Counted from the stretch's first letter, positions 43,397 through 43,694 are shown. The stretch: DNA of 64,000 bases from Candidatus Aenigmatarchaeota archaeon (GCA_039000165.1 JAWBTW010000001.1:1-64000), one strand, 5' to 3'. Notes: generated by a model from the letters alone, not told the origin. Numbers and translations are program-made.

Positions 43397-43454
43397 AATG
43401 AAATTTTAGAAAAAAAGCTTTTAAGATTATAGTAACTCAGATAACTAAGTTCAG

Positions 43455-43599
43455 CGCCGAGGCTGGGATTTGAACCCAGAAGGGGCAAAGCCCCACCAGC
43501 TTTCTCAACTCACCTCCGACTCATCATTAGTCAGAGTCAAGCCATTTTATCATTGAAAGACTCAAGGCTGGCGCGTTAGCCAGGTTCCGCCACCTCGGC
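43455..43599 (-). tRNA. tRNA-Ser(TGA) with 59-nt canonical 37/38 intron (43502-43560)
   Basis: GCCGAGG/CCTCGGC acceptor, CCAGC-CTTGAG|A-GCTGG anticodon arm, long variable arm, G73. Confidence 0.93.
43502..43560 (-). ncRNA. intron-encoded box C/D sRNA
   Basis: C ATGATAA, 12 nt, D' CTGA, 3 nt, C' ATGATGA, 12 nt, D TTGA; terminal TTC/GAA stem. Confidence 0.8.
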
Positions 43600-43628
43600 T
43601 TCCTCATCTTTATTCAGACCTTGAGTCT
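43600..43628 (-). ncRNA. tRNA 5'-leader guide plus D/C' kink-loop module targeting own U34
   Basis: AGACTCAAGGT-CTGA-ATAAAG-ATGAGGA; guide antisense to pre-tRNA GCCTTGAG|TCT. Confidence 0.7.
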
Positions 43629-43694
43629 AATTAAAATATGAGTTTTAATTTTAAAATATTAGAACTTAAAAATTAAATTTATCAAATTAATTTT

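Follow-up and report, generated by a model that had tools for sequence, protein, structure and literature searches.

A conserved one-K-loop guide module in the 5' leader of an archaeal tRNA-Ser(UGA) gene, predicted to target the wobble uridine of its own precursor

Introduction

Why should the 5' leader of a tRNA gene carry a stretch complementary to the anticodon arm of that same tRNA, followed at once by the sequence boxes of a methylation guide? The question is raised by the tRNA-Ser(UGA) gene of a Candidatus Aenigmatarchaeota archaeon (GCA_039000165.1; G000 below), which lies on the minus strand of what we call the window, the whole 64,000-nt stretch of DNA analysed (JAWBTW010000001.1:1-64000). 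Box C/D guide RNAs carry two consensus words, RUGAUGA and CUGA. They are, to our knowledge, defined by two such box pairs, and we know of function with a single pair being argued only from engineered RNAs. The leader examined here holds one pair, and an initial annotation had proposed that it is half of a box C/D guide acting in cis on U34. From its layout, its conservation and its covariation with the target, we conclude, with a probability of roughly 0.7, that the leader encodes a natural single-K-loop (monopartite) box C/D guide for Um34 that would act on the unspliced precursor.

Results

A tRNA-Ser(UGA) gene preceded by a guide-like module

With introns allowed, ARAGORN places tRNA-Ser(UGA) at 43454-43599 with a 59-nt intron, and a search with the Rfam tRNA model (RF00005), confined to that region, gives 42.3 bits (threshold 29) on 43455-43599. 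The gene has the attributes of a class II tRNA-Ser, namely a cloverleaf above threshold, a long variable arm and a UGA anticodon. It was missed by default ARAGORN and by the whole-window Rfam run. Across the 25 contigs (783 kb) of the assembly it is the single tRNA-Ser(UGA) gene; ARAGORN's remaining 'Ser tga' calls are Leu genes that were mis-read. Elsewhere in the assembly (C4:35665-36557), ARAGORN joins a tRNA to a copied tRNA 5' end that lies about 800 nt upstream of it, with an open reading frame in the intervening stretch; a tRNA 5' end may have been duplicated there beside an inserted gene.

Read 5' to 3' on the minus strand, the module upstream of the tRNA consists of AGACUCAAGG, U, CUGA, AUAAAG, AUGAGGA and A, and then G1 of tRNA-Ser(UGA) (Table 1). 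What the initial annotation had described can be seen directly. A repeat finder returned 43628-43619 as a perfect complement of 43567-43558 (10 nt, 100%, arms 51 nt apart), with every annotated coordinate correct, and U43618 lies opposite G30 (43568) to give the additional wobble pair. The CTGA box and the ATGAGGA box 6 nt later are at 43617-43614 and 43607-43601. The TATA-like element said to lie about 20 nt upstream is TTTTAAAA at 43656-43649. Inspection of the local sequence found no C-type box upstream of the guide, as had been claimed, nor any D-type box in the interval from the C' box to G1, which is just 1 nt long. The fifth nucleotide upstream of CUGA, A43622, faces U34 (43564), as the proposed N+5 register demands. 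CUGA occurs twice in the 3' trailer (at 43454-43451 and in the 43430-43427 region); these words were considered as part of a second box pair and rejected, as relatives do not conserve them.

Table 1. Positions of the features at the tRNA-Ser(UGA) locus (window coordinates) and of tRNA genes with related intron modules elsewhere in the assembly
Feature	Position	Strand	Basis or remark
TATA/box-A-like element TTTTAAAA (TTTAAA 43655-43650)	43649..43656	-	20 nt upstream of guide
Antisense guide AGACUCAAGG	43628-43619	-	10/10 complementary
Guide plus U	43618..43628	-	pairs with tRNA positions 30-37 and intron nt 1-3
U opposite G30 (43568)	43618	-	sequence; G-U pair beside 10 Watson-Crick pairs
D'-type box CUGA	43614..43617	-	letter 1 pairs with C' letter 6
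6-nt loop of the K-loop, AUAAAG	43608..43613	-	loop length 4-9 nt among 39 copies, mostly 6 or 7
C'-type box AUGAGGA	43601..43607	-	AUGAUGA in 16/39 relatives
Single A between C' box and G1	43600	-	sequence
G1 of tRNA-Ser(UGA)	43599	-	sequence
tRNA-Ser(UGA) gene, 59-nt intron after position 37	43455..43599	-	ARAGORN, Rfam
Guide target, G30-G37 and first three intron nt	43558..43568	-	complementarity; U34 = 43564
Intron, a complete box C/D sRNA	43502..43560	-	sequence; sub-threshold Rfam C/D matches
Intron sRNA C box AUGAUAA	43553-43547	-	sequence
Intron sRNA D' guide	43546-43535	-	sequence
Intron sRNA D' box CUGA	43534-43531	-	sequence
Intron sRNA C' box AUGAUGA	43527-43521	-	sequence
Intron sRNA D guide	43520-43509	-	sequence
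Intron sRNA D box UUGA	43508-43505	-	sequence
Six intron-module tRNA genes of G000	C6:33224-33346, C9:26832-26949, C4:46763-46874, C8:10369-10476, C9:15028-15146, C13:14410-14514

Set against the attributes of the box C/D class, the module has a C-type and a D-type box able to form a K-turn or K-loop (CUGA, a 6-nt loop, AUGAGGA) and an antisense stretch, some 10-12 nt long, that adjoins the D/D' box on its upstream side and has its target at the fifth nucleotide, and it resides in a genome with L7Ae, Nop5 and fibrillarin. It lacks the two box pairs that complete the class, where they are set in an RNA of about 50-70 nt whose two spacers each measure some 12 nt, and is therefore a one-motif variant rather than a canonical member. 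Judged by these elements, it most likely works like a box C/D guide without the second motif. The leader matches no Rfam family, and for 43600-43628 this holds for the C/D families even at E values up to 10. The 11-bp duplex has a computed energy of -17.0 kcal/mol at 37 °C, -10.8 at 60 °C and -6.8 at 75 °C, and the predicted minimum-energy fold of the precursor at 37 °C includes it.

The module is conserved beside tRNA-Ser(UGA) in related genomes

A DNA search of 60 relatives returned similarity that frequently starts precisely at the guide, and the loci extracted carry the same module. With a strict pattern, which fixed TGA in D', ATGA in C' and positions 3-8 of the guide, 28 of the 118 genomes of the order matched, as against 2 matches for a reversed control. 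The matches were spread unevenly over the families (G000 left out): f1 21/69, f2 3/3, f3 1/1, f4 2/23 and f5 0/19. When 26 distinct matches were extracted, 24 proved to lie directly upstream of tRNA-Ser(UGA); the two from f4 are in coding sequence. A loose pattern, which also left guide positions 1-2 and D' letter 1 free, matched in 107 of the 371 genomes of the phylum, with control matches in 24 genomes. We inspected 40 loose-pattern loci, a biased sample comprising 20 as returned and 20 picked by eye for a K-loop appearance; 17 were linked to tRNA-Ser and 23 were not. After removal of duplicates, and with L082 (no tRNA target) and L068 (Ns) left out, the final set comprises 39 distinct modules from 38 genomes, and every one of the 39 is linked to a tRNA-Ser(UGA) gene. 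An exact-motif scan of public genome contigs added nothing to this set: among the matches listed, 3 of 120 were tRNA-Ser loci, all known already, and the others were chance matches, mostly bacterial.

The module can also be lost. A genome of the same genus (G004, locus L011) has mutations in guide, D' and C' boxes alike while its tRNA and intron sRNA are intact, and neither family f4 nor genus g3 has the leader module, the intron of tRNA-Ser(UGA) being retained in both. The module is therefore dispensable.

Guide and target covary, as do the two boxes

As evidence for pairing we used only those positions that the search patterns had left free. Guide nucleotide 2 forms a Watson-Crick pair with tRNA position 31 in 37 of the 39 modules (G-C in 28, A-U in 4, U-A in 3 and C-G in 2), the remaining two being A-C mismatches. 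At the other end of the duplex, guide nucleotide 9 pairs with the nucleotide after G37 in 38/39 (A-U 22, U-A 7, G-U 5, G-C 4). Pairing then fades, from 30/39 for nucleotide 10 and the next nucleotide of the target to 16/39 for nucleotide 11 and its partner; guide nucleotide 1 pairs with position 30 in 25/39. In an alignment of 21 leader-type loci, guide nucleotide 9 and intron nucleotide 1 pair in all 21 and nucleotide 10 and intron nucleotide 2 in 20, with compensatory changes. The covariation score for these loci, in which kinship is ignored, is 0.149 against a shuffled mean of 0.094 and was reached in none of 500 shuffles; 90.9% of cells are paired, a figure that falls to 50-55% when the partners are slid by one column. 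Related genomes are not independent, and kinship by itself can outscore such shuffles, but compensatory pair types recur across families f1, f2, f3, f8 and f25.

Compensatory guide pairs in different families indicate that the duplex is real and that intron-bearing genes need the unspliced precursor to form it: the duplex includes intron nucleotides, so the full substrate exists only before splicing. In G011, whose tRNA has no intron, the 5' end of the guide pairs with positions 38-39 instead.

The two boxes obey a rule of their own. Letter 1 of D' and letter 6 of C' form a Watson-Crick pair in 39/39 modules (C-G 30, U-A 6, A-U 3), and each non-standard type occurs in at least two families; both letters were hidden from view while loci were being picked. 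This pair is the one expected beside the sheared G-A pairs of a C/D-type kink, and its covariation is, on comparison of these sequences, a K-loop signature. The initial annotation had called for a scan of leaders in related genomes for covarying guide, CTGA and C' elements, and it had envisaged a kink-loop layout and a full duplex confined to the unspliced precursor; the scan yielded these 39 modules with covarying boxes and guide, the D'1/C'6 pair of three types bears out the kink, and the covariation of the guide's 5' end with the first intron nucleotides agrees with the restriction to unspliced RNA. That the pairing and the K-loop are functional RNA features is in our judgement very nearly assured.

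Register is constant and placement is not

Guide nucleotide 5 faces U34 in all 39 modules. Thirty modules sit in the leader, upstream of G1, and the others are found in introns: five in an intron at 30/31 (L075, L076, L077, L079 and L108; families f8 and f21), three in the 37/38 intron (L101-L103; family f5) and one in a D-loop intron (L105; genome G228). In this distribution it is linkage to the precursor, together with register, that is conserved rather than placement, and the module seems to shift from one removable part of the precursor to another.

The 'leader' boundary is ambiguous in 5 of the 30 genomic placements so classed (G013, G099, G011, G033 and G020), where a copy of the acceptor 5' strand precedes the module. 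At these loci (L035/L100 in G013, L059 in G099, L093 in G011, L055 in G033 and L057 in G020) a direct repeat of the first 6-8 nt of the tRNA flanks the module, which may be the trace of an insertion or the sign of an acceptor-stem intron. G020 has two modules in tandem.

Two relatives, L014 (G043) and L018 (G038), have a second antisense stretch directly after the C' box, complementary to the 3' splice junction and positions 38-45. The match is 10 nt exact in G043 and, judged by eye, 11 pairs with one G-U in G038, and nucleotide 8 of the spacer faces G39. It is followed in G043 by AUGA at the place of a D box, and in G038 by no D-like word.

Sister modules in other tRNA introns of the same genome

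The strict motif matches once in G000, at the tRNA-Ser(UGA) locus only. Six other tRNAs of this genome carry a one-K-loop module in the 37/38 intron, each laid out as guide, one nucleotide, D', a 6-7-nt loop and C', and each obeying the D'1/C'6 rule (Table 1). In Leu(UAA), Leu(CAA), Trp(CCA), Met(CAU) and the two-intron Gln(UUG), nucleotide 5 of the guide faces position 34; in Cys(GCA) the guide spans the 3' splice junction and nucleotide 5 faces C39. With the leader module of tRNA-Ser(UGA), the genome thus has seven, six in register with position 34 and one with position 39. A 10-bp match near position 90615 of contig 1 was discarded as a further module because it apparently lies in coding sequence.

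The intron of tRNA-Ser(UGA) is a separate sRNA

The 59-nt intron gives sub-threshold Rfam matches to Pyrococcus and other C/D families, the best being RF00095 (21.9 bits, E 0.019), and has both box pairs of a complete box C/D sRNA (Table 1). Its 12-nt D' guide has 9 contiguous complements in the conserved decoding-centre stretch of the organism's own 16S rRNA, and its 12-nt D guide has 8 at the 3' end of that 16S rRNA, rising to 10-11 in relatives. The predicted targets, which we take to be about A1408 and C1535 in E. coli numbering, are approximate. In the terminal motif, AUGAUAA/UUGA, a compensatory A/U replaces G/C, so that the D1-C6 pairing rule holds here as well. Conservation of both intron guides extends across the order and takes in family f4, which is without the leader module. 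One may speculate that an rRNA guide occupying the intron is the reason why the tRNA's own guide sits elsewhere.

No leader module accompanies the paralogous tRNA-Ser(CGA) gene of G000 (C14:6986-7124, L002), whose 53-nt intron is likewise a complete box C/D sRNA, but a different one. The upstream regions of the two genes have two AT-rich blocks in common, and in this comparison the 26-nt module seems to have been inserted between the second AT-rich block and G1.

Promoter, processing and protein machinery

If the guide is to be part of the precursor, transcription must begin at or before it. In the window, the last letter of TTTAAA lies 24 nt ahead of CTCAAG. Among the 30 leader-type loci, box-like hexamers (any of six) occur 24 nt upstream of CTCAAG in 8, with no more than 4 at any other offset; TTTAAA itself is at this distance in 6 of the 30, from three genera, and the AT block at -31 to -27 has G or C in just 1-4 of the 30 loci. 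In Nanoarchaeum, box A is reported to lie 26 nt upstream of the transcription start (PMC3491384). By analogy with this spacing the start is predicted at about 43628, the first nucleotide of the guide, so that a box-A-like element is found where the start near 43628 expected in the initial annotation requires one. TTTTAAAA is thus likely, from its position, to be the promoter of a leader-tRNA transcript. The single nucleotide between the C' box and G1 leaves no room for a separate tRNA promoter between them. Against the predicted start, the AT-rich stretches that separate the guide from the upstream box (43636-43629 is one) could act as a promoter and start the RNA downstream of the guide. Contigs from two runs labelled metatranscriptomic (probably DNA) and from two DNA runs represent a relative with a short intron, whose likeness to the window ends at 43627, and are uninformative on start and expression. 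A scan for bacterial-type promoters and terminators, irrelevant for an archaeon, gave nothing useful.

The genome encodes the three proteins that had been invoked for the module: fibrillarin (PF01269, 283.6 bits), Nop5 (PF01798, 231.4) and L7Ae (PF01248, 109), the Nop5 and fibrillarin genes being adjacent on contig 6. An RNase P RNA is encoded too, at 135.8 bits where the threshold is 84, so a leader can be removed.

Discussion

How the module would act and what else it might be

We infer the transcription start, RNP assembly, methylation, cis action and the order of events as follows. The box-A-like promoter would drive the tRNA-Ser(UGA) gene, and the RNA would start at about 43628 with the guide itself. 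In the unspliced precursor, the first 11 nt of this RNA would pair with anticodon-arm positions 30-37 and the first 2-3 nucleotides of the intron, while CUGA, the 6-nt loop and AUGAGGA would fold as a K-loop and bind L7Ae. The L7Ae-bound K-loop would recruit Nop5-fibrillarin, which would place a 2'-O-methyl group on U34, opposite the fifth guide nucleotide. RNase P would then cut off the 29-nt leader at 43600/43599 and the splicing endonuclease would remove the intron, making the guide a disposable part of its own substrate. The product envisaged has precedent, as Um34 and s2Um34 are reported in Sulfolobus tRNAs (PMC7668247).

Of the alternatives, the one that survives best is that the leader acts in trans only, as a tiny sRNA gene from which RNase P frees a K-loop RNA of about 29 nt that methylates other unspliced tRNA-Ser(UGA) precursors. 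The pre-tRNA-Trp intron guide has been reported to act in trans or intramolecularly (PMC7994747, citing Singh et al. 2004 and Bortolin et al. 2003), and Nanoarchaeum has dicistronic tRNA-sRNA transcripts (PMC3491384). Within our own collection, the Leu(CAA) and Met intron modules are such that the maximal guide-target duplex would leave a hairpin loop of 1 nt, which favours, or at least hints at, pairing between two molecules, and G020 has an extra upstream copy of the module that is followed by an AT-rich stretch of its own. However, the module is physically linked to a tRNA-Ser(UGA) precursor in 39 of 39 cases and in four different places, and the confinement of the motif to this locus in G000 means that there is no free-standing copy. 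Moreover, the 11-bp duplex is so weak at 75 °C that linkage would help it to form. We therefore regard action in trans alone as unlikely, though a serious competitor to a guide acting on its own precursor.

Could the leader instead be a folding or timing device that involves no methylation, its helix and L7Ae-bound K-loop shielding the anticodon loop and 5' splice site or setting the order of RNase P cleavage and splicing? By inspection, the splicing motif would consist of C32-G35 paired with 43507-43504 between the bulges A36 G37 U and A A A38. The guide covers the 5' splice site and the same nucleotides 32-35 that the central helix of this motif needs, so the endonuclease helix should be unable to form while the guide is paired. 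L7Ae also binds many K-turn RNAs that are not guides (PMC5539422), and a fully single-site box C/D complex, active in vitro, was non-specific for the methylated site (PMC1635284), a result that also counts against a one-pair guide. Yet a shield needs no fixed distance to D', whereas nucleotide 5 of the guide faces position 34 in every one of the 39 copies, and the modules of G000 are in register with 34 or, in the seventh, with 39, both known C/D-guided positions in archaeal tRNAs (PMC7994747). These registers make a device of this kind improbable as an account of the module. The chance explanation, that fortuitous complementarity lies beside fortuitous box-like words, draws on the abundance of such short words in AT-rich intergenic DNA and on a noisy genome-wide scan for K-loop words with a nearby 8-bp complement (52 matches, as against 25-31 with shuffled guides), but it is refuted by the covariation and has a negligible probability, since at least 38 genomes conserve the module, compensatory changes occur at four free pair positions, and the window holds a single instance of the combination guide core, CUGA, 3-9 nt and AUGA, whereas 100 shuffles of it yielded none.

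An effect on timing need not be separate from methylation by a guide on its own precursor. Some nucleotides of the splicing helix belong to the guide duplex as well, and others to the D box of the intron sRNA, so the three structures would be mutually exclusive. On this structural argument, sRNP assembly on the intron, pairing of the guide and splicing should exclude one another (43504-43508, 43561-43566).

Relation to known guides

A full-text literature search, in which subscription journals were thinly covered, found no paper on a leader-encoded or a tRNA-Ser-directed guide. The closest relatives differ from the module in instructive ways. Like it, the euryarchaeal pre-tRNA-Trp intron guide (Haloferax volcanii; Pyrococcus sR50) resides in a removable part of the precursor of its own substrate, finds its wobble target by the N+5 rule, and forms a duplex across the exon-intron junction of an unspliced substrate; it guides Cm34 and Um39 (PMC7994747). 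That guide, however, lies in the intron and has C/D and C'/D' pairs with two guides, whereas the module in the window lies in the 5' leader, upstream of G1, with one box pair and one guide. Its target is U34 of tRNA-Ser(UGA), and the intron holds a separate, rRNA-directed sRNA; the three relatives in f5 do have the guide in the 37/38 intron. Free-standing sRNAs directed at wobble positions share the same position 34 and the same logic: in Pyrococcus, position 34 of tRNA-Leu(CAA), Leu(UAA), Met and Trp is a predicted C/D target (PMC7994747), and G000 carries self-directed intron modules in these same four tRNAs. Those sRNAs are full-size and have two motifs, and tRNA-Ser(UGA) is not a named target in the relevant parts of the two accounts (PMC7994747, PMC7668247).

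The anatomy of the module, with a 5'-terminal guide, a single K-loop and a target at position 5, is that of the engineered RNA MMG5 (Wang, Yang and Ye 2022, PMC9670817), which is described as active and specific once L7Ae is added. MMG5 is artificial and was used with Sulfolobus proteins and short substrates in trans, whereas the module here, as known from sequence, is natural, conserved and fused to its substrate. A natural counterpart comes from another DPANN archaeon, Nanoarchaeum equitans, which has a C/D-like RNA with one box pair in the intron of elongator tRNA-Met (Randau 2012, PMC3491384). Its sRNAs are reported to be co-transcribed with tRNAs either downstream, for release by RNase Z, or within an intron, whereas here the module is in the leader (PMC3491384). 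As described in that study, the tRNAs of N. equitans are leaderless and the organism has no RNase P, so a leader guide would not be possible there (PMC3491384); the genome studied here, unlike that of N. equitans, encodes RNase P RNA.

Implications

The sister modules and the changing placement raise the wider prospect of a phylum-wide 'self-guiding pre-tRNA' system in DPANN, with one-K-loop guides in the 5' leader or in a 37/38, 30/31 or D-loop intron, to which we give somewhat less than an even chance. As part of that same tentative picture, each such tRNA would bring along the guide that directs methylation of its own wobble base or of position 39, and the guide duplex and the substrates of splicing and RNase P would exclude each other, giving the order methylate, then trim and splice. 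Were such a system to exist, it would provide a function for leaders and for many of the tRNA introns that these archaea have in unusual numbers, and the 29-nt leader would be the smallest natural methylation guide known.

Annotation is affected as well, since the tRNA and its guides were both missed by standard tRNA and sRNA finders. The module itself is a conserved one-pair guide whose sequence covaries with that of the target and which is built into its own substrate, in the 5' leader, where we found no guide reported. If our reading is true, it would be a natural minimal guide RNP, and U34 of tRNA-Ser(UGA) would join the tRNA modifications that are guided by RNA. The pre-tRNA leaders and introns of genome-reduced archaea would then acquire a testable function, including a built-in ordering of maturation.
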